From the UHGV virus genome UHGV-0123274: a stretch of 15,494 nt of DNA. The stretch is one strand, 5' to 3'. A model generated the notes under the pieces. That model was not told where the DNA came from. It ran no database searches and saw only the letters and a program-made list of their open reading frames with translations. The translations under genes and the position numbers were made by a program. Every line of letters begins with the position of its first letter. Position 1 is the first letter of the stretch. Positions 1,532-15,494 of the stretch are shown in pieces. The DNA comes from a virus.

Positions 1532-2058
1532 GCCGCCCTCCTGACGCCCTGCCCGATCGCCATCAATGCCGCTTTGGATACGGTAGTAAACATCCGTCGA
1601 GGACTGATGAACGGTCGCCAAATCAGCAGCATGGAGCCTTTGCTGTTTCCCTTCTTCTCCAGCCCTGTCGATGGTTCGATAAAATTAATCCGTCCATCAG
1701 TGATAATGCGAACTTCGTCGACACTCTCCAGAGCCTTGCTGAACCATCCGACTGACATATCCTCTGGCACAAGCATAACTACCGTCTGTCGCTGTTGTAT
1801 GCACTGCTCAGCGGCTTTTTCCACCCACGGCCTGATATTGCTGTACGGTGGGTTATTCCAGATTGCACCGTGGCTTACCCACTCAGAATTGAGCGCGTCG
1901 TCGGCCTCAGTTAGCCAGTGAGCACACAGAGCATTTTTGTCGCTCGCTGCCGAATCCAGCCAGAATCCAAACTCAATATCCAGTGCATCAAAAAGCCAGA
2001 GCGGCGTTTGCCAGCAGTCTCTAACTTCTTTTGGTGTTTCTGATTTATGCTTAATCAT
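1528..2058 (-). CDS. dam: Phage Dam-family DNA N6-adenine methyltransferase
   Basis: 176-aa product with catalytic NPPY motif and LDSAAS SAM-binding-like segment; ATGA overlap with upstream HNH gene. Confidence 0.85.
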
Positions 2059-2582
2059 TCACCCCTCGCATATTGTCCGTGATATTTGTTGATAGCCTCA
2101 CTGGCAACCAAACCAGCAAGCTCAAGATCTTCATAGAACCCAAAATGCAACCGGCCAAAATCTGTGCGCACTTGAACGGCCCATTTATTTTTTTGCTTGT
2201 TCCATAAAACATTTTTTATTCCAGAACGGCTATTGCACTTAGTTTTCTGATTTCGGCTGTTTGCTATCCGGCTTGCCTCCCTAAGATTTTTTGGGGAATT
2301 GTCCAGCCTGTTTCCGTTAATATGGTCAATATTTTTCAATGGCATTCTTTTGTTGTGCAGCGCAAAAACAACTACGTGAACAAACATCTGAATGCCTGCA
2401 AAACACACCTGTCTATACCCAGATCCATTTATCGATGTTTTAATTTCATCTCCGGCCCGGTGGCTGTGGTTGGGGTGTTTTAGCGAGTCCTTTTTGTATC
2501 TGACTGTATCTCCGTCTAAATACAGATAATCCTCAATAAGCCGATACCTATCTGACGCTGGCGTATTTGATTTGATAGTCAT
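2055..2582 (-). CDS. HNH homing-type endonuclease (HNH motif plus AP2-like DNA-binding region)
   Basis: Motif NIDHINGNRLDNSPKNLR (HNH) followed by WNKQKNKWAVQV...FGFYED (AP2-like); ATG at 2582 overlaps ninB stop (ATGA); track ORF start 2642 lies inside ninB. Confidence 0.8.
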   Translation of the reverse strand: MTIKSNTPASDRYRLIEDYLYLDGDTVRYKKDSLKHPNHSHRAGDEIKTSINGSGYRQVCFAGIQMFVHVVVFALHNKRMPLKNIDHINGNRLDNSPKNLREASRIANSRNQKTKCNSRSGIKNVLWNKQKNKWAVQVRTDFGRLHFGFYEDLELAGLVASEAINKYHGQYARGE

Positions 2583-3019
2583 GCAGCCCGATCTCCCCAT
2601 CTCGCTTTCCACTCCAGAGCCAGTCTCGCTTCGTCTGACCACTTAACGCCACGCTCTGTACCGAATGCCTGTATAAGCTCTAATAGCTCCGCAAATTCGC
2701 CTACACGCATCCTGCTGGTTGACTGGCCTATTACCACAAAGCCATTCCCGGCAAGGTTAGGAACAACATCCTGCTGCTTTAATGCTGCGGTAAACACACA
2801 CTTCCAGCTTTCTGCATCCAGCCAGCGACCATGCCATTCAACCTGACGAGAGACGTCACCTAAGCAGGCCCATAGCTTCCTGTTTTGGTCTAAGCTGCGG
2901 TTGCGTTCCTGAATGGTTACTACGATTGGTTTGGTTGGGTCTGGAAGGATTTGCTGTACTGCGTGAATAGCGTTTTGCTGATGTGCTGGAGATCGAATTT
3001 CAAAGGTTAGTTTTTTCAT
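2579..3019 (-). CDS. ninB: NinB (Orf-family recombination mediator)
   Basis: Translation from MKKLTFEIRSPAHQQNAIHAVQQILPDPTKPIVVTIQERNRSLDQNRKLWA closely matches lambda NinB as recalled; GGAGAGGG Shine-Dalgarno upstream of ATG at 3019. Confidence 0.9.
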   Translation of the reverse strand: MKKLTFEIRSPAHQQNAIHAVQQILPDPTKPIVVTIQERNRSLDQNRKLWACLGDVSRQVEWHGRWLDAESWKCVFTAALKQQDVVPNLAGNGFVVIGQSTSRMRVGEFAELLELIQAFGTERGVKWSDEARLALEWKARWGDRAA

Positions 3020-3095: not shown

Positions 3096-4532
3096 TCAGA
3101 ATCCCCCTTTCTTCTTGGACTGCGGTTCCTTGCGTTCACGGCGGCGAATTTCAGCAGACTGTTGGTCTGTGTCATAAATAGCGCCATTTGCCTGAATGCA
3201 ATACACCGTACCGGTATTGCCATGACGATTGAGACGAAGGATTAGTTCGGTTTCACCAGGTGGAACACTGTCATCAAAAGCGCCTTCACGATGGATCCCA
3301 ACCCAATAATCGCAATCCTGTTCAATCTGCCCTGTATCTCGTGAGTCACTTGGTAATGGGCGTTTATTGGTTCGGCTTTCCAGTGCGCGGTTAAGCTGCG
3401 TCAGAAGCACAACAACGCAATCAAGCTCTTTGGCAAGGTTCTTCAGTCCTTTGGTGATCATGCCGTAAGCAAGGTCGTTGCGATCGGCCTTCTCAGCGGT
3501 CATTAGTGTCAGGTAATCGACCAGAATCATGCCAACACATCCTTTTTCTCGCTTGATTCGACGGCTTTCGCTGACGATTTGAGCCAGAGATAATCCCGGC
3601 GTGTCGTCGATGTAAAGCATGTCGATTTCACTCAAGCGATTAGCTGTTTCGATCGCCCTGTTGAAGGCACCATCGTAATCACCCTGATAGCCGTCATCAG
3701 CGTCATTTGTCGCCGGAAGGTAAAAAATATTCGGGTTAACACCAGACTTCTGCCCTACCAGTTTTTCCAGTATCTGATCACCTGGCATTTCAAGGCTGAA
3801 CATCAAAGCGGGCTTTTTCTCATGCACTGCGCAATTGATTGCCATCTGGCTGTATAGCGTCGTTTTCCCCATCTTAGGGCGAGCGCCAATGACAAACAGA
3901 GAGCCTTTCACCAGACCTTTCGGTGACAGCATCCTGTCCAGCGATGGGATCCCTGTGCTCATTCCCCGTTGTTCGCCTGATGGGTCAAATCGCTTCTCAA
4001 GGTCGCTAACCCAGTCTTCCATGACCTCACCAAATGAACGAAGGCCGCGACGCGATCCGGTTTTTGCATGGTCTGTCAGTTGCGTGAAAATCGCCTGAAT
4101 AGCTTCGTACTTCTGCGTTGCAGTCATTCCGTTGCGGGAATAGAGCAATTCCGTCGCTTCAGTCATGCGGTTGATGGCGTAGCGTTCCATTGCGGTTTCA
4201 CGAACCTGCATTGCATAGGCAACGATGTTTGCTGCGCTTGGCGTGTTCTTTGCGATCTCAGCGATATAAGCAAAACCGCCAACAGACGCCGTTAACGATT
4301 TACGCTCCAGTTCATCGAAAAGCGTCAGGCCATCTACTGGCTTTTGCTCCCGGTGCATTCTGGTTATTTCTTCGAAAAGGATTTTGTGTGGTCGGCCGTA
4401 AAATGAATCAGGCTTCAGCATCGCCAGAACTTTCCGGACGCGCTCACTGCTGTCATCATCCAGAAGCAATCCACCAATCACCGCCTGCTCTGCCTCGATG
4501 CTATGGGGCGGCGCATAAAAATTATCGGTCAT
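3096..4532 (-). CDS. DnaB-family replicative DNA helicase
   Basis: 478 aa from ATG at 4532 (GAGGG RBS); Walker A GARPKMGKT and DnaB-like N-terminal region; overlaps the stop of the O-like gene. Confidence 0.9.
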   Translation of the reverse strand: MTDNFYAPPHSIEAEQAVIGGLLLDDDSSERVRKVLAMLKPDSFYGRPHKILFEEITRMHREQKPVDGLTLFDELERKSLTASVGGFAYIAEIAKNTPSAANIVAYAMQVRETAMERYAINRMTEATELLYSRNGMTATQKYEAIQAIFTQLTDHAKTGSRRGLRSFGEVMEDWVSDLEKRFDPSGEQRGMSTGIPSLDRMLSPKGLVKGSLFVIGARPKMGKTTLYSQMAINCAVHEKKPALMFSLEMPGDQILEKLVGQKSGVNPNIFYLPATNDADDGYQGDYDGAFNRAIETANRLSEIDMLYIDDTPGLSLAQIVSESRRIKREKGCVGMILVDYLTLMTAEKADRNDLAYGMITKGLKNLAKELDCVVVLLTQLNRALESRTNKRPLPSDSRDTGQIEQDCDYWVGIHREGAFDDSVPPGETELILRLNRHGNTGTVYCIQANGAIYDTDQQSAEIRRRERKEPQSKKKGGF

Positions 4533-5421
4533 CGTGTTCACCCTCACGAACTTTCAGGTAGGTATTATCGTTAAGCAGGAAATCAAATCCCTTTTTGTGC
4601 CAGACGGTTCCGCGCTGATGGTTTGGGCGCTCTTCGAACATCCATCGGCAATTTTCGCCTACGTAGCTCAAATAATTTCTCCAGTCCTGCATCGTGAAAC
4701 CATGCCCGTCAAGCTGTCGGGTTATCACTCCGGCTTTGCGCCAGAACGTTCGGATCTGGTTTTTACGCTTGTCATTCAGTGCGCGGATTCTTGGCGCTTC
4801 AGGAAGGATTTCGTGGTAAGCATCGACAACATCCTGACAGCTGACGGAAGGTTTTTTCTTGTCAGACTTTTTGTCTGCTGTGGCACTCTCTAATACGTCA
4901 GTATTAGAGATAATATTATTATATTCTTTATCTGTGGTAATTTGCTGGTAATCTGCTGGTACAGTATTGCTTGCAGGCATTGGTATTGCTGGCTTTGAGG
5001 TGGTAATTTGCTGGTAATCTGCTGGTACAAAATTTGACTGATAATCGTCATATTTCTCTACCGAGAAAACTGAGAATTTACCGTGTGAAACCCAGTCAAT
5101 CATGCCGAGTTTTTTGAACTTTCTAAGCAGGTACTGAACGCGATCTGGTTTGAGTCCTGTTTCAAACGCCAGAGTATTTCTACCGCCAAGTAGCTTCCCT
5201 CTGCCTACCAGAATTTCTCCTGCGTCAGTCATTACATACTCAGGCGTATGCTTTGCTTTGAGGATTAAGTGAACCCACAGATGCGCAGTTTCTGCGTCCT
5301 TGTAAAACGGCACATCCATAATTTTACGGTGCAGCAAGGCATACCCCTTACCGCTGCTTTGATGCGGTTGTTGTAGCCTTCTGGCCTCTCTGGCTTCGGC
5401 TAGATTAGATATGTTACTCAT
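4522..5421 (-). CDS. Replication initiator, lambda O-like (contains origin iterons)
   Basis: 299-aa ORF with AAGGAG RBS; sits between cII and helicase; internal tandem peptide [10 protein letters not shown] x2 coded by DNA iterons. Confidence 0.8.
4900..5040. repeat. Origin-like iteron array plus adjacent AT-rich tract inside the O-like gene
   Basis: 30-bp direct repeat gtggtaatttgctggtaatctgctggtaca at 4934..4963 and 5000..5029, built from shorter ggta(a/t)t..gc sub-repeats; AT-rich tract at 4900..4930 downstream in O direction, as in lambda ori. Confidence 0.65.
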
Positions 5422-5983: not shown

Positions 5984-6202
5984 TTAGGCGGCTTTGTTAC
6001 TGGATGGAGGGAAAACATCATCCAAAGAACATTGGCACCCTAACTTCCTGAGGCCTTCTACGATCATTCGGCAATCGTTAAGGCCAGGAGTACGGATATT
6101 CAGCTCATAGTTGGCGATGCGGGATTGCCCCCAACCAATTGCTGAAGCTAGTACAGCTTGCGAAACTCCGATTTTTTTTCGCTGCTGGGCAATTTTGTTC
6201 AT
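5984..6202 (-). CDS. cro: Cro-like repressor (XRE-type helix-turn-helix)
   Basis: 72 aa from ATG at 6202 with AGGGAG RBS; HTH segment IGVSQAVLASAIGWGQSRIANYE; divergent from cI. Confidence 0.8.
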   Translation of the reverse strand: MNKIAQQRKKIGVSQAVLASAIGWGQSRIANYELNIRTPGLNDCRMIVEGLRKLGCQCSLDDVFPPSSNKAA

Positions 6203-6219
6203 TGCGGTCTCCCTAGCAT

Positions 6220-6305
6220 TAATCACACACCCATTACACACAATTTGTGATTAACAGTCAACCTCAATTCGTGTACAGAGTTCAATCACGTTGCGTGTTA
6301 CATTT
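6220..6305. promoter_or_regulatory. oR operator region with pR (minus strand) and presumed pRM (plus strand)
   Basis: pR: -35 TTGACT (6256..6261) with 17-bp spacer and -10 TGTAAT (6233..6238) on minus strand; palindromic CACA..TGTG-type sites, one (acacaatttgtgatt) near-identical to a site in oL. Confidence 0.6.
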
Positions 6306-6310
6306 AAGGG

Positions 6311-6958
6311 ATGAAAACGATGCATGAAATTATCGGGGAAAGGATCAAGTCCCTTAGAGAAGCTAAAGGACTTAGCCAGGCTCAATTGGCCAAGCTTTGC
6401 GGCTGGGCTGCGCCTTCACGCCTGGGGAACTACGAGTTAGGAACAAGAAAGGTTAGCGCGGATGACGCGCTGGTTCTTGGGGCGGCACTCGGCGTATCTC
6501 CGGCAAAAATAATGTTTGGCGAGGATTCAGACGCCGTATTTCGCCAATATGAATACCCGTTATTTTCTTCAGTGCAGGCCGGGCCATTTTCGGAGGTGGG
6601 AAGCTACACAGCCAGCGATGCAAAGGCATGGGTCCCAACGACCACAAAAGCCAGCGAAAAAGCTTTCTGGCTTGAGGTGAAGGGGCATTCAATGACGGCG
6701 CCTCAGGGGGTTCGTCCAAGTTTTCCGGAAGGCATGCTGATACTCGTTGATCCGGCTGAGCCGGTAGAGTCTGGGGATTTCTGCGTGGCTTCTGCAAATG
6801 GTGATTCAGAGGCAACGTTCAAGAAGTATGAGAAGGATGCAGGGGTTAGTTACCTGGTACCTTTAAACCCGGCATATAGAACACTGGATTGCGACCATAG
6901 CTGCCGCATCATAGGCAAGGTAGTTAAGGCGCAGTGGCCTGAAGAGACGTTTGGCTGA
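6311..6958 (+). CDS. cI: CI-type prophage repressor (N-terminal HTH, C-terminal S24 LexA-like autopeptidase domain)
   Basis: 215 aa; [15 protein letters not shown]; Ala-Gly cleavage candidate in VQAGPF; Ser in GHSM and Lys in TFKKY; C-terminus AQWPEETFG resembles lambda cI as recalled. Confidence 0.9.
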
Positions 6959-7108
6959 TCGGCAAGGTGTTCTGGTCGGCGCATAGCTGGTGAAAAAATT
7001 ATTTAATGCGGTGTATTGGCTGATTGTAACCCCATGTAACATCTTGCCGTCACCATTTCGGTGGTTAGATTTTTAATAAAAAAAAACAAATGTATAGCAA
7101 GGTTTTTT

Positions 7109-7588
7109 ATGGATAAAATTAATTACCCACCCCTGTTTGAGCCAGGGTTCCATGACATGGATGAAGCTGGATTAAAATCGTATTGTGTCGATTGCTTTCC
7201 TTCATCATCCAGGCGAGGCATGCTATACTGTAATTTTATACAGCTACTCGAATCTATTCGAGAATTATCTGCTCAATATGGCTGTTTTACAGAAATATGG
7301 GTTGATGGTTCATACACCACGTCTAAACCAGAGCCTGATGATATTGATATTTTGTTGGTATGTGACTATAGCAATATAAACTCAATACCTGTCATGCTTC
7401 GGGGCCGCGTCGATAATTTGCTTGACCGAAACTACATCAAACAAAACTACAAAATTGATGTCCTACTACTCATGAAGAATTTAGATGACCCTAACTATGA
7501 TTATGAGTACTGGCGTAGCTACTGGCGCGGTTGGTTTGGTTTTGATCGCAGTGAAAACCCGAAAGGGTTAGTGAGGATTTTTTTATGA
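7109..7588 (+). CDS. Minimal nucleotidyltransferase-fold protein (Pol-beta superfamily), 159 aa; first gene of rexAB-position cassette
   Basis: Motif VDGSYTTSKPEPDDIDILLV fits the GS-x9-DxD signature (compare LFGSYARG...SDIDLLV in MNT proteins); ATG at 7109 preferred over GTG at 7061; visibly AT-rich. Confidence 0.65.
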   Translation: MDKINYPPLFEPGFHDMDEAGLKSYCVDCFPSSSRRGMLYCNFIQLLESIRELSAQYGCFTEIWVDGSYTTSKPEPDDIDILLVCDYSNINSIPVMLRGRVDNLLDRNYIKQNYKIDVLLLMKNLDDPNYDYEYWRSYWRGWFGFDRSENPKGLVRIFL

Positions 7589-8517
7589 ATGATAAATCAA
7601 TGTTTAAAAATTGCGATAAACGCATTGATTTCATTCAAAAAGAAGTCGATGCAATGAAGCAAAACAAAACCAGGTCCTTTGCTGACATGCTTCTTTATCG
7701 CTCCATGGATTCTCATCTGAGCGATTTGAAGGCCGAAAAATTAAAGCAAGATAGTCGGCACCCACTTATCGATTTTTTTGAGCTGCGGCTGAAAGGCTCT
7801 GAGGTTGACTTTGGCTCTATTCCTTTAGAGCTGCTTGGGGCTATTTCAACAAATCTTGCAGCGCTAATACAAAGAGCAACACACAAAATTGCCTCAGGCA
7901 AGGACTCAAAAAAAGTTCCCTACGACGTGAAAAGCTCCTTAAACCTCAGGCTGGCTGATTTATCCCCTGGGTCTACAAAATTGGGCGTCACCTTCTCTAC
8001 AGGAATAGCAGAATTAGTAGAAACAGTACCCAGCAAGGCTGTAAAAGGCATATTCGATTTGTTGTTAAGCGATGACGACAACAACTTCATGAATCACGTC
8101 GCTGAAATTGGATACAATTCCACTGTAAGCCTTAAGAGAATCGTAGAGGAATGCGATAAACACAACTTAACATTTGATGCAAGTTGGACCGGTCCATTTA
8201 GTAATGGCACCAAGGTGGCAACTATTGACTCCAATAAAATTAAGTACTTGGTGAGTAGACTTACATCAACCATTTCATCCCCTCCCATTACTGAAACGGT
8301 TACAGGCGAACTGGTCGTTCTATCCAAATATGGGAAGCTGGAGCTTGATGTTGGTGGTGAACATTTAAAGGCTTCCTATCCGATTGAAATGCTAGATTTA
8401 ATACAAAAAAAACACAAGGTCGGACAGATTGTTTCTCTTTTAGTGGAGACTACTGAGATTCACAATGATCGCATAGGTCTGTACCGTAAAAACCATCTTG
8501 TTAAATCGGTTCTTTAA
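7585..8517 (+). CDS. Hypothetical 310-aa protein, second gene of rexAB-position cassette; no confident domain
   Basis: ATGA overlap with upstream gene, GAGGA RBS; soluble-looking, no obvious TM segment; AT-rich. Confidence 0.75.
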   Translation: MNDKSMFKNCDKRIDFIQKEVDAMKQNKTRSFADMLLYRSMDSHLSDLKAEKLKQDSRHPLIDFFELRLKGSEVDFGSIPLELLGAISTNLAALIQRATHKIASGKDSKKVPYDVKSSLNLRLADLSPGSTKLGVTFSTGIAELVETVPSKAVKGIFDLLLSDDDNNFMNHVAEIGYNSTVSLKRIVEECDKHNLTFDASWTGPFSNGTKVATIDSNKIKYLVSRLTSTISSPPITETVTGELVVLSKYGKLELDVGGEHLKASYPIEMLDLIQKKHKVGQIVSLLVETTEIHNDRIGLYRKNHLVKSVL

Positions 8518-8524
8518 TATCTCA

Positions 8525-8550
8525 CCCGGCCACCGCGCCGGGTTTTTTAT
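8525..8550 (+). terminator. Intrinsic terminator after the cassette (tImm-like)
   Basis: Hairpin cccggc-caccgc-gccggg followed by tttttt; resembles the lambda terminator after rexB as recalled. Confidence 0.7.
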
Positions 8551-8764
8551 TGTCCGCCGATCACTATCAGGACAGCACCTGCCAGCCGGTCCAAACAATT
8601 GATTAAATTACTATAATTCTTAATACAACTCCCATATCCCGCCATCTCGCCACCACCACCTTCGCTCGTTTTTCGAACTTTTCAGCACCCATCCTGCTGT
8701 TGCCACCGACTTAAGTAAGCAAAACCATCGCGGGTAAAACTATTTACACAAAAAAATCATACAC

Positions 8765-9275: not shown

Positions 9276-9548
9276 ATGACAGTAGTCATTACATATCTGG
9301 CTGACGATAACGCCAGAAATCGCCGCAGAGCACGCAGACAGGCTCAACGTGAACAGGCAATGCAAGAGCAGCGACTGGCACGAAAAATTGCGCTAAAGCT
9401 CTCTGGTTGCGTCAGAGCAGATAAAGCAGCATCACTCGGAAGCCTTTGCTGCAAGGAAGAAGATGAACGCAGTGGAAGTATTTGCCTGCCAAACGTAGCC
9501 ATTTACGCGGCAGGATACCGGAAATCAAAACAACTGACAGCGAGGTAA
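9276..9548 (+). CDS. N: N-type antiterminator with arginine-rich motif
   Basis: GGAGG RBS; N-terminal ARM NARNRRRARRQAQREQ; segment ARKIALKLSGCVRADKAASLGS resembles phage 21 N as recalled; first gene after pL/nutL. Confidence 0.7.
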   Translation: MTVVITYLADDNARNRRRARRQAQREQAMQEQRLARKIALKLSGCVRADKAASLGSLCCKEEDERSGSICLPNVAIYAAGYRKSKQLTAR

Positions 9549-9838: not shown

Positions 9839-10288
9839 ATGGAAGAACAAGCAAACAAGATTCTCGTAGAACTACTGCAAAAAGCCAGTAATGGAATAGA
9901 CGCGGCTGTTTCATTCAGCCAGGCACAGATTCCTGATGTTGTTCATCAGTTGCTGCTATGGAATATGGTTGACAGTCTGATTAAAACATTAATGGCCATT
10001 CTAACAATCCCACTGGTTTTCTGGTTTATGAAGAAGCAGTGCCAAAGAGTTGAGACAGGTAAAATCGGTGATGAAGGATATTCATGGGAGAAAGGAAATC
10101 CCAAATACATGCCGACAATGGTTTGGGATAGCAAAGGTGATATTAATCTTCTTATCATGCCATTGGTTGTAGTTTTGACTCTGTGGGGGATTTTTATTAT
10201 TGGTGTAGTAACCAATATGACTTGGTTAAAAATTTGGCTGGCCCCAAAGCTTTACCTTATCGAATATGCAGCATCATTGGTTAAGTAA
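9839..10288 (+). CDS. Small membrane protein, 149 aa, two predicted TM helices; possible superinfection-exclusion protein
   Basis: Hydrophobic stretches MAILTIPLVFWFM and LLIMPLVVVLTLWGIFIIGVV; GAGG RBS; followed directly by a terminator; AT-rich. Confidence 0.7.
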   Translation: MEEQANKILVELLQKASNGIDAAVSFSQAQIPDVVHQLLLWNMVDSLIKTLMAILTIPLVFWFMKKQCQRVETGKIGDEGYSWEKGNPKYMPTMVWDSKGDINLLIMPLVVVLTLWGIFIIGVVTNMTWLKIWLAPKLYLIEYAASLVK

Positions 10289-14837: not shown

Positions 14838-15433
14838 GCAACATCAACAAACAGGCGCTGCGTGGTCAGAGCGTCGAAGGTTCGTATTACCTGGCAGAAT
14901 GTGGTCATTGTGGCGAGATGTACCCAAGTAACAAGCTGGATGGAGGTGAGTCGCTATTTTCCGGCGATTACGGTGAATGCTTCTGCCACCTCTGTGGCGC
15001 TGATGATTCTGATATTGCAGATAACGGCGCGTGGGGTTCTGAGGCTGTAACAGCATGGAATTATCAGCAGAAGCGTATCGAAGCGCTGCTGGATGAGAAC
15101 TACAGGCTGACTGCGGAGCGTGATGCTCTGCGAGAAAACATAGGCGGTGACAACACCCGTGCAGCTGCTGATATTTACTTCCAACTGGTCGAGGAGTGCG
15201 AAATTCCTGCTGGCGGATCTCTGGTCGAATACGTTGATGATATGCGCGAGAAGCTGGAAGCCGCAGAGAAGCGCATTGCAGAACTGGAAGCACGGGAAAT
15301 ATCGCTCCCAGAACGTAGCAGCATGCTTCATCGAACAGATTTCCACGAGGATTACCAAACGGTAATGGCATACAAAGTTTCTGAAGTCATCGCTGCAATC
15401 CGCGCTGCAGGCATTCGCATCAAAGGAGAGTGA
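14834..15433 (+). CDS. Hypothetical protein, 199 aa, with N-terminal Cys/His cluster (putative zinc ribbon) and coiled-coil C-terminus
   Basis: ATGA coupling to upstream gene; CGHCG...CFCHLCG motif; preferred over the long antisense ORFs because of operon context. Confidence 0.7.
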   Translation: MSNINKQALRGQSVEGSYYLAECGHCGEMYPSNKLDGGESLFSGDYGECFCHLCGADDSDIADNGAWGSEAVTAWNYQQKRIEALLDENYRLTAERDALRENIGGDNTRAAADIYFQLVEECEIPAGGSLVEYVDDMREKLEAAEKRIAELEAREISLPERSSMLHRTDFHEDYQTVMAYKVSEVIAAIRAAGIRIKGE

Positions 15434-15439
15434 TATGAG

Positions 15440-15494
15440 CACTGGATGATATGGGCGCAGATAGCACATGCAGACGTAACCAATATTCGAATTG
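15440..15494. repeat. Right copy of the perfect 55-bp terminal inverted repeat
   Basis: Exact reverse complement of 1..55; begins 6 nt after the stop of the last plus-strand gene. Confidence 0.9.

Follow-up and report, generated by a model that had tools for sequence, protein, structure and literature searches.

A nucleotidyltransferase gene and an orphan OB-fold gene in place of rexA-rexB: locus, domains, mobility and possible role in lysogens

The 15,494-nucleotide stretch of viral DNA analysed here (genome UHGV-0123274; hereafter the window) carries, between a cI-type repressor gene and a terminator, a two-gene cassette that occupies the position of rexA-rexB in phage lambda. Gene A (7109..7588) encodes a minimal Pol-beta-type nucleotidyltransferase (NTase) of 159 aa with a pI of 4.7. 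Gene B (7585..8517) encodes a soluble, basic orphan protein (310 aa, pI 8.3) with a C-terminal OB fold. All features given below lie on the + strand, except the left junction box, which has no assigned strand. The pair is the PADLOC candidate PDC-M63, i.e., gp42-gp41 of phage mEpX1. It is tentatively proposed that the pair is expressed in the lysogen as an exclusion or abortive-infection module, with an enzyme-plus-partner logic resembling that of toxin-antitoxin pairs; genomic context is what points to a role in defence, and the mechanism proposed below is conditional.

The upstream gene of the presumed operon (6311..6958) is a cI-type repressor with HTH and peptidase S24 domains (Pfam Peptidase_S24, 3.1e-26; HTH_31/HTH_3), and its counterpart in mEpX1 is annotated as a LexA-family cI. 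The 3' end of cI and the following 31 bp form the left junction box (6932..6989), which is identical to lambda 37253-37196 over 58/58 positions and is likely a recombination linker for module exchange. On the right side, window 8524-8546 matches lambda 35825-35803 at 21 of 23 positions, the lambda hairpin being located directly after the rexB stop. From these two junctions it follows that 6990-8523 is an exact replacement of lambda rexA-rexB; blastn against lambda gives no match inside the cassette. The counterpart of the lambda hairpin is a Rho-independent terminator (8524..8550), labelled tImm in the preliminary description of the locus. The terminator scan detected a hairpin at 8524-8543 followed by a T-run, and the fold has an energy of −14.9 kcal/mol (z = −3.15, none of 200 shuffles being as stable). 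The lambda-like flanks described earlier on both sides are thus borne out by identity, scan and fold. The cassette had also been described as AT-rich: this holds with reference to cI (GC is 0.396 in the cassette and 0.523 in cI, the window as a whole having 0.455), but equally AT-rich segments occur elsewhere in the window, so its low GC marks a mosaic module and nothing unique.

Novelty of the pair had been implied. The two genes are however already present in Pfam, PHROGs, PADLOC and the genome of mEpX1, the cassette DNA being 99.8% identical to mEpX1 gp42/gp41. The PADLOC model PDC-M63A (PDLC04744, 1.8e-41) aligns residues 1-158 of A with profile positions 1-148 of 152, and PDC-M63B (PDLC04749, 7.5e-45) aligns residues 23-304 of B with positions 20-300 of 309. 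PDC-M63 is one of 145 PADLOC candidates predicted by guilt-by-embedding, i.e., derived from embedding in BREX, DISARM and type I RM. The literature search for experiments on the pair found a single one, which is negative: when PDC-M63AB was deleted from the E. coli strain that naturally carries it, the infectivity of 10 virulent phages did not change (bioRxiv 10.1101/2024.12.20.629700). Literature searches gave no mention of DUF6932, the Pfam family of A, and no characterised equivalent of the pair, and the mEpX1 papers are silent on gp41/gp42. What is new here, and absent from the PDC-M63 prediction and from the deletion study, is the placement in the rexAB slot, the domain analysis and the mobility of the cassette; also new are the co-occurrence of the two genes in all intact loci, their habit of lying downstream of repressors and the purifying selection on both.

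Gene A matches Pfam DUF6932 (1.7e-24; 87 bits for a cutoff of 27) and phrog_9194 (2.3e-64), in addition to PDC-M63A. The alignment of homologs favours ATG 7109 as the start over the upstream GTG 7061. The Pol-beta signature GS-x9-DxD, seen in the preliminary description, is present as G67 S68 ... D78 I D80 (7307..7348) and shows no variation among 48 homologs, which reach down to 35% identity. A third acidic residue of catalytic type, D117 (7457..7459), is at least 90% conserved and stands at the start of beta strand E116-123 of the AF2 model. The homolog alignment also reveals a family-specific motif, RSYWRGWFGF (residues 136-145; 7514..7543), in which R136, S137, Y138, W139, R140, G141 and F143 are invariant and W142, G144 and F145 are at least 90% conserved. 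The AF2 model (pLDDT 96) has the order helix-strand-GS-strand(DxD)...strand(D). The top Foldseek matches in the PDB are weak (best E 4.2e-3, TM ~0.3) and are all NTases: 2rff, the MNT antitoxins 7ae2_B (Foldseek probability 0.96), 7ae9 and 7bxo, CdnC, Pol beta and AadA. At the sequence level, the Pol beta palm is found by Pfam below threshold (0.044), the search of solved structures returns Pol beta only, also below threshold (E 0.2), and three homologs of A have precomputed PF01909 co-hits. The DUF6932 match, the motif conservation and the model support the NTase fold first assigned to this protein, and the structural matches, though weak, point to it as well. It is concluded that A is a minimal Pol-beta-type NTase whose catalytic set is intact and invariant.

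Gene B matches phrog_6603 (3.4e-147) besides PDC-M63B, and has no match in Pfam or NCBIfam. Its family comprises 269 clusters, nearly all with a length of 300-325 aa. The protein can be divided into (i) a helical hairpin, residues 10-57 (7612..7755; AF2 helices H10-25 and H32-57, pLDDT ~76-81); (ii) an alpha/beta region, residues 58-228 (7756..8268), with two repeated LRLxx...GS strand motifs seen in the conservation of 90 diverse members; (iii) the C-terminal OB fold, residues 229-309 (8269..8514). The conserved polar residues of the alpha/beta region in these 90 members are E/D63, R68, D/N120, R122, G129 and S130, S130 being invariant. Foldseek matches of B in the PDB are all weak (best E 7.7e-3); the recurrent ones are the cyclase/Cas10 palm and Cas2, i.e., ferredoxin-like folds, which is a hint that the middle region of the model may resemble a ferredoxin-like palm. 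The profile search with residues 56-228 alone found no other domain architecture, the sequence search of solved structures with B gave nothing meaningful, and the Pfam scan of the 90 members gave scattered single matches at noise level only. No effector or catalytic domain was recognised in B by Pfam, Foldseek or profile searches. Over 19 residues, Kyte-Doolittle hydropathy peaks at 1.25 in A and 1.38 in B, compared with 2.39 in RexB, and it reveals no transmembrane (TM) segment in A or B.

For gene B the preliminary description had pointed to a weak Rx4H (RSMDSH) and to an analogy with MNT/HEPN pairs. The Rx4H is present (R39..H44), yet R39 is unconserved and just 66% of the 90 members have H44. 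The HEPN_AbiU2 match obtained for 1 of these 90 members (0.005) is at noise level. With no conserved Rx4-6H, and with a mixed alpha/beta architecture ending in an OB fold instead of an all-helical one, B is ruled out as a HEPN protein and the analogy is not supported for this gene.

The two genes overlap by 4 nt, as described earlier, and the ATGA coupling is confirmed. The translational coupling signal (7573..7588) consists of a GAGG Shine-Dalgarno inside A (7573-7576) and of the ATGA stop/start overlap (7585-7588); enterobacterial copies retain the (G)AGG. The 4-nt overlap is found in 11/14 loci, a 14-nt overlap in 2/14 and a 10-nt gap in 1/14. In 14/14 intact loci, down to ~20-35% identity, gene A directly precedes B; these include four independent loci found via A homologs of 36-46% identity. 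Co-occurrence of the pair in other genomes, which had been put forward as a check, is therefore seen in every intact locus examined. The loci obtained in the genome scan with the A2 alignment were 7 in number, all enterobacterial, and two of these are decayed fragments. Purifying selection is strong on A and B (dN of 0.11-0.46 with saturated synonymous sites); the dN/dS values that could be computed are 0.07-0.12.

An intergenic region of 150 bp (6959..7108) separates cI and A. The promoter suggested there (TTGCCG at 7044-7049, a spacer of 16 nt, TAGATT at 7066-7071) shares 8/12 positions with the consensus, is below the threshold of the promoter scan, which did not call it, and is not conserved among the diverged relatives, whose upstream region is unrelated. 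A sigma-70 promoter of the cassette's own at ~7044-7071 is thus unsupported. In the same region, the hairpin 7046-7065 was considered as an internal terminator and rejected: with −7.2 kcal/mol and z = −1.15 it is not significant. Gene A has an AAGG Shine-Dalgarno 6 nt ahead of its ATG. Rfam matched no family in the window. The 150-bp gap could hold a promoter that went unrecognised, and L018-L020, relatives that stand alone, must be transcribed from promoters of their own.

The E. coli G3/10 genome also carries the cassette, in a prophage whose immunity and flanks differ from those of the window and in which another S24 repressor precedes it. The comparison with this copy delimits a mobile unit at 6934..8561, 99.5% identical; the homology begins at window 6934, and in G3/10 a 27-bp copy of the junction box is duplicated. 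At this identity, the cassette has been transferred from one immunity region of E. coli to another. In most loci the pair lies just downstream of a prophage repressor and in its orientation: this is so in the window, mEpX1, AMSCJX03, G3/10, L003-L007 and L015, and the repressors are of at least four types. Other contexts exist. In L012 the pair is located between YoeB/Phd and type I RM genes; in L010 it is chromosomal, directly after imuB-dnaE2, with no defence or prophage genes; in L019 it adjoins a DinI fragment. The allele is present in 18 of 5,426 complete E. coli genomes. The earlier proposal of a moron swapped in at the rexAB position, and unlike RexAB, holds: the best blastp E-value with RexAB is 0.42, TM segments are absent and the 99.5% identical copy elsewhere shows the cassette to be mobile.

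Comparison with known systems separates the slot from its content. With lambda RexA-RexB the pair shares the slot, both boundaries, the number of genes, the presumed transcription unit and the terminator, but A and B have no sequence similarity to RexA-RexB, and RexB is a polytopic membrane protein. The interval between cI and N is a recognised hotspot in which both RexAB and BstA are found (PMC8585504). BstA of Salmonella prophage BTP1 is likewise a lysogen-expressed abortive-infection gene directly downstream of the repressor (PMC8585504); by its description it differs from A/B in that it consists of one protein only, and an aba element provides its self-immunity. The type VII toxin-antitoxin pair HepT/MntA resembles A-B in having two tightly overlapping genes of which the first encodes a minimal Pol-beta NTase, an acidic first and a basic second product, and MNT antitoxins among the best structural matches of A. 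It differs in its HEPN partner, B being mixed alpha/beta with an OB fold and twice the partner's size, and A carries in addition the invariant RSYWRGWFGF and aligns weakly with MNT (E of at least 4e-3, TM ~0.3). On the whole pair PADLOC gives no strong match beyond the PDC-M63 models.

In lambda, cI, rexA and rexB are transcribed together from PRM. If A-B are co-transcribed with cI from PRM in the lysogen, as is assumed here, A and B would already be present before superinfection. The two proteins would form a complex, in which B would bind single-stranded nucleic acid via its OB fold and would be the sensing and growth-arresting component. The acidic product of the first gene would restrain B by nucleotidylating it, as in type VII pairs (MntA-HepT); in B, a candidate acceptor is the loop with the invariant Gly129-Ser130. 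The ssDNA or replication intermediates of a superinfecting phage, or a disturbed A:B balance, may then free B and abort the infection, which would protect the lysogen population. The polarity of the operon, i.e., A first with a pI of 4.7 and B second with a pI of 8.3, is toxin-antitoxin-like. As for the defence, exclusion or toxin-antitoxin role put forward in the preliminary description, association speaks for it (listing as PDC-M63, position downstream of repressors, RM and toxin-antitoxin neighbours, cI-N hotspot), but the sole experiment found is negative. It should be noted that several observations count against this explanation: the negative deletion, the weak similarity of A to MNT, the lack of a recognisable effector or catalytic domain in B and the L010 context, to which the chance of a promoter in the 150-bp gap and the stand-alone relatives add a point against the assumed PRM co-transcription.

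The polarity of the pair may also be the opposite, although this is rather unlikely: A would be a toxic NTase of MenT/AbiEii type that extends tRNA or other nucleic acids at their 3' ends, and B an OB-fold substrate recruiter, sensor or antitoxin. AbiE and MenAT (DUF1814) are Pol-beta-superfamily NTases that act in phage defence and in toxin-antitoxin modules; their partners and gene order are unlike those of the A-B pair. They constitute another family, A having no profile match to AbiE/MenT DUF1814, nor to CBASS CD-NTases, in Pfam or in PADLOC up to an E-value of 1; up to that value, the PADLOC matches of A are the PDC-M63A models only. A toxic A is thus at odds with a sequence that resembles neither AbiEii nor the other NTase models of PADLOC, and the enzyme-first order, with an acidic A and a basic B, suits an antitoxin-first operon better.

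It is also rather unlikely that the pair serves no anti-phage role and acts as an addiction module stabilising the prophage, or as a pair of DNA/RNA metabolism (repair, damage tolerance, regulation) in the service of the phage or host. The unchanged infectivity after deletion in the native host speaks for such a role, and the L010 pair follows a mutagenic repair cassette (imuB-dnaE2); the DinI fragment beside L019 points the same way, and an OB fold with a Pol-beta-type NTase also belongs to the vocabulary of DNA repair. Against this, the contexts are mostly the lysogenic-operon slot behind repressors, plus one defence island, the distribution is patchy and rare (18/5,426), lateral exchange is recent, as is typical of defence cargo, and the deletion was assayed with just 10 virulent phages.

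Hailong (HalA/HalB) pairs an NTase making short DNA with a DNA-gated effector (PMC13276650), and this precedent, together with an NTase lying beside an OB-fold protein of nucleic-acid-binding type, is what favours a signal or decoy function, in which A would make a nucleotide or short oligonucleotide bound by the OB fold of B, and phage enzymes consuming or sequestering this ligand would activate B (a Hailong-like guard with a soluble effector). This is very improbable: neither a membrane domain nor an effector domain of another kind is recognisable in B, CD-NTases are much larger than A, which also lacks a domain for binding an acceptor, and the pair has no sequence link to any PADLOC signalling system. 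In the review description of Hailong (PMC13276650), the NTase is likewise partnered with a nucleic-acid-binding protein, but HalA is a membrane ion channel and B is soluble.

Returning to the exclusion or abortive-infection reading, a bolder form of it can be envisaged, but is improbable: A and B would be a mechanistically new prophage immune module, in which a minimal NTase, acting with or on an OB-fold orphan, senses single-stranded nucleic acid of the superinfecting phage and aborts the infection, the middle domain of B (LRL...GS repeats, Ser130) being a new effector or a switch controlled by nucleotidylation. In that case DUF6932 and PDC-M63 would have their first validated function, and the cI-N slot, which holds RexAB and BstA in other phages, a third solution unrelated to these two.

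The pair is unusually testable: the cassette is available in a cultured phage of K-12, mEpX1, and in lambda, whose junctions are identical, it can be swapped in isogenically. Should the pair not be a defence system, it would still be useful as a negative control for guilt-by-embedding and guilt-by-slot predictions. If the role in lysogen defence is true, (i) DUF6932 and an orphan family of ~270 clusters (50% identity) would gain a function; (ii) an NTase/OB-fold mechanism would join prophage immunity; (iii) the rexAB slot would be a place where unrelated two-gene exclusion modules are swapped via conserved boundary sequences.

The lambdoid early region of the window runs opposite to the usual lambda orientation. 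It contains a Cro-like HTH protein (5984-6241, minus strand), a cI-type repressor (6311-6958, HTH + S24), the A-B cassette, an operator/PL region and an N-peptide antiterminator (9276-9548), the operator/PL region lying between the cassette and the N gene. Positions 6932-6989, i.e., the cI end plus 31 bp, are identical to lambda 37253-37196 (58/58), and 8524-8546 is identical at 21/23 positions to lambda 35825-35803, i.e., the hairpin just 3' of the rexB stop. The intervening 6990-8523 (1,534 bp) thus has the exact position of lambda rexA-rexB, as proposed in the preliminary description. The terminator placed there after B is convincing: the terminator scan calls it, with a folding energy of −14.9 kcal/mol (z −3.15), and none of 200 shuffles folds equally well. 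The cassette is indeed AT-rich (GC 0.396 vs. 0.523 for cI and 0.455 for the window), but other mosaic segments are equally so.

Gene A (7109-7588, 159 aa) starts at the ATG at 7109, a start backed by homologs, and overlaps gene B (7585-8517, 310 aa) by the expected ATGA; a GAGG Shine-Dalgarno is found 8 nt upstream of the B ATG. Such a 4-nt overlap of stop and start is shared by 11 of 14 loci. Compared with diverged copies (47-82% amino-acid identity), both genes have a dN of 0.11-0.46 with saturated synonymous sites, and a dN/dS of 0.07-0.12 where calculable. A and B are real genes.

A matches Pfam DUF6932 (87 bits, cutoff 27), PADLOC PDC-M63A (1.8e-41) and phrog_9194 (2.3e-64), and no NCBIfam profile. 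G67, S68, D78 and D80 are invariant and D117 nearly so in 48 homologs with identities as low as 35%; these residues are the complete catalytic set of a Pol-beta nucleotidyltransferase (NTase). The GS...DxD signature first noticed in A is thus borne out. The same homologs share an invariant C-terminal motif specific to the A family, RSYWRGWFGF-R-E-PKG. The AF2 model is of high confidence (pLDDT 96) and has the expected order of helix, strand, GS turn, DxD strand and later D117-bearing strand. In the PDB, Foldseek finds weak matches to A (best E 4.2e-3, TM about 0.3), yet every leading one is an NTase: 2rff, MNT antitoxins of HEPN-MNT pairs, CdnC, Pol beta and AadA. Precomputed PF01909 matches exist in three A homologs. 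Motifs and model together point to a divergent minimal NTase, probably active.

B has no family in Pfam or NCBIfam, and matches PADLOC PDC-M63B (7.5e-45) and phrog_6603 (3.4e-147). An exhaustive profile search gives 269 clusters at 50% identity, almost all of 300-325 aa, thus the architecture is uniform. B is an OB-fold protein; its AF2 model (pLDDT 83) has three parts, including an N-terminal helical hairpin and a mixed alpha/beta middle region. Polar residues conserved over 90 diverse members are E/D63, R68, D/N120, R122, G129 and S130, the last being the sole invariant residue; they fall within two repeated LRLxx...GS strand motifs. The Rx4H previously pointed out (R39..H44) is not conserved across the family. 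B is basic (pI 8.3) and without TM segment, as opposed to the acidic A (pI 4.7). For B, Foldseek hints only weakly at ferredoxin-like palm folds, the profile of residues 56-228 alone recovers the same family and nothing else, and a Pfam scan of the family members gives no meaningful match. Residues 62-146, spanning both LRL...GS motifs, weakly match (3.4e-5) the N-terminus of another untested PADLOC candidate, PDC-M32A (376 aa), and may be a module common to two candidate systems. One full-length member, P0315, is labelled as originating from a Candidatus Hodarchaeales (Asgard archaeon) MAG, i.e., either a genuine archaeal occurrence or bin contamination.

When the A and B HMMs are run on all fetched loci, A is directly upstream of B in every intact locus examined, so the expected co-occurrence is found. 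The order also holds in four independent metagenomic/genomic loci reached via A homologs at only 36-46% identity, where B is about 20-30% identical. The pair is co-directional and just 3' of a prophage repressor in the window, in the cultured phage mEpX1, in AMSCJX03, E. coli G3/10 and Silvania, and also in an Enterobacteriaceae MAG, Proteus, Citrobacter, Biostraticola and an unrelated metagenomic phage. At least four repressor kinds are found upstream, including HTH-only (127-130 aa), HTH+S24 (215-235 aa) and HTH_26+S24 (304 aa). In three close relatives the pair has no repressor ahead of it. In one locus it is flanked by a YoeB/Phd toxin-antitoxin pair on one side and type I RM genes on the other, and one further locus is chromosomal, 3' of imuB-dnaE2. 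In G3/10, homology to the window is limited to 6934-8561 (99.5%), behind a different repressor, and the junction box is duplicated, thus box and terminator are the module boundaries. This 27-bp box (window 6933-6959, at the cI 3' end) is present twice, tandem-like, at 3239-3265 and from 3327 onward of the G3/10 locus, 3' of the different repressor, and looks like the footprint of a recombination importing the cassette. The allele is rare (18 of 5,426 complete E. coli genomes).

The promoter formerly suggested for the cassette (about 7045-7072) is not supported: it agrees with the consensus at 8 of 12 positions, goes unreported in the scan and lacks conservation; the fold of a hairpin at 7046-7065 is not significant. 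Since the repressor-to-A gap is only 60-76 bp in many loci and the cassette boundaries are those of the lambda cI-rexA-rexB unit, the most economical reading is that the pair is co-transcribed with cI from PRM. Diverged copies that stand alone share a conserved 28-bp (approximate length) element, TAAGCACTGAT(C/T)AT(C/A)TATCAGGATGGGC, about 60-70 bp upstream of A (L018 2850-2880, L019 2855-2885, L020 1-30). It includes the palindrome CTGAT-N5-ATCAG, is absent from the window intergenic region, and may serve as operator or promoter where no repressor precedes the pair.

Other features of the window must be mentioned. An inverted repeat brackets it (1-67 and 15428-15494): the first and last 55 bases are exact reverse complements of each other, and the repeat extends over 67 nt at 94%. 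Since 55 is a common assembler k-mer size, this may reflect an inverted repeat at which the assembly graph ends, and not a terminal repeat of biological origin. Among complete E. coli genomes, coverage of the window in a single place never exceeds 55%. A 195-aa HNH_3 endonuclease ORF (2055-2642, minus strand, Pfam 5.5e-11), is found in a lower-GC patch (about 0.41-0.42), adjoining a phage Dam methyltransferase gene (1528-2058, Pfam Dam 8.2e-66); it is probably an insertion of homing-endonuclease type into the nin region. The probable replication origin is a set of three iteron-like direct repeats of about 35 nt (GTGGTAATTTGCTGGTAATCTGCTGGTAC..., 4934-5034) within the replication-protein gene (4522-5421, minus strand). 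A 149-aa ORF (9839-10288, plus strand) without Pfam family, whose product has clearly hydrophobic stretches, is found in an AT-rich patch soon after the N gene; since lambda has sieB at roughly this position, it may be a second exclusion-type moron.

The pair is a member of PDC-M63 and DUF6932, thus already in databases as an entity, and its mechanism matches no characterised system. mEpX1 is 99.8% identical over the 1.6-kb cassette, both genes being annotated as hypothetical. PDC-M63 is among 145 untested PADLOC candidates, which the authors took from genes lying inside BREX, DISARM and type I RM loci, and is cassette CAS_00189 of their table, where its count is 45 (bioRxiv 10.1101/2024.01.29.577857). 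DefensePredictor left PDC systems out as unvalidated. The sole experimental mention of PDC-M63 found in the literature search is its deletion in E. coli NILS69, which leaves the infectivity of 10 virulent phages unchanged (bioRxiv 10.1101/2024.12.20.629700); no paper naming DUF6932 was found.

A-B is a translationally coupled operon, usually within the lysogenic operon of prophages, and two abortive-infection systems, RexAB and BstA, are known from the cI-N slot (PMC8585504). The pair does not match RexAB, as already suspected: the best blastp E is 0.42 and A-B has no membrane protein. As a whole statement, a type-VII-TA-like logic is tentatively favoured, because the enzyme gene comes first, an acidic protein is paired with a basic one, and MNT antitoxins are among the nearest folds of A. 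A and B would form a complex excluding superinfecting phages; A would restrain B by nucleotidylation, the invariant Gly-Ser loop of B being the candidate acceptor, and B would be an ssDNA- or RNA-binding sensor and effector. A role outside defence (addiction or DNA metabolism) agrees with the negative outcome of the deletion and with imuB-dnaE2 as a neighbour, and is considered unlikely. Equally doubtful is a MenT-like effector role for A, B being its targeting subunit or antitoxin. A Hailong-like scheme, with a ligand made by A and bound by B, is very improbable. The HEPN partner of MntA/HepT type once envisaged for A is rejected, since B fails the defining HEPN motif and fold; AbiE, MenT and CBASS identities are rejected by profile search. 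Although it is one of many untested candidates, with one negative result against it, the A-B cassette is real, well bounded and easily tested.
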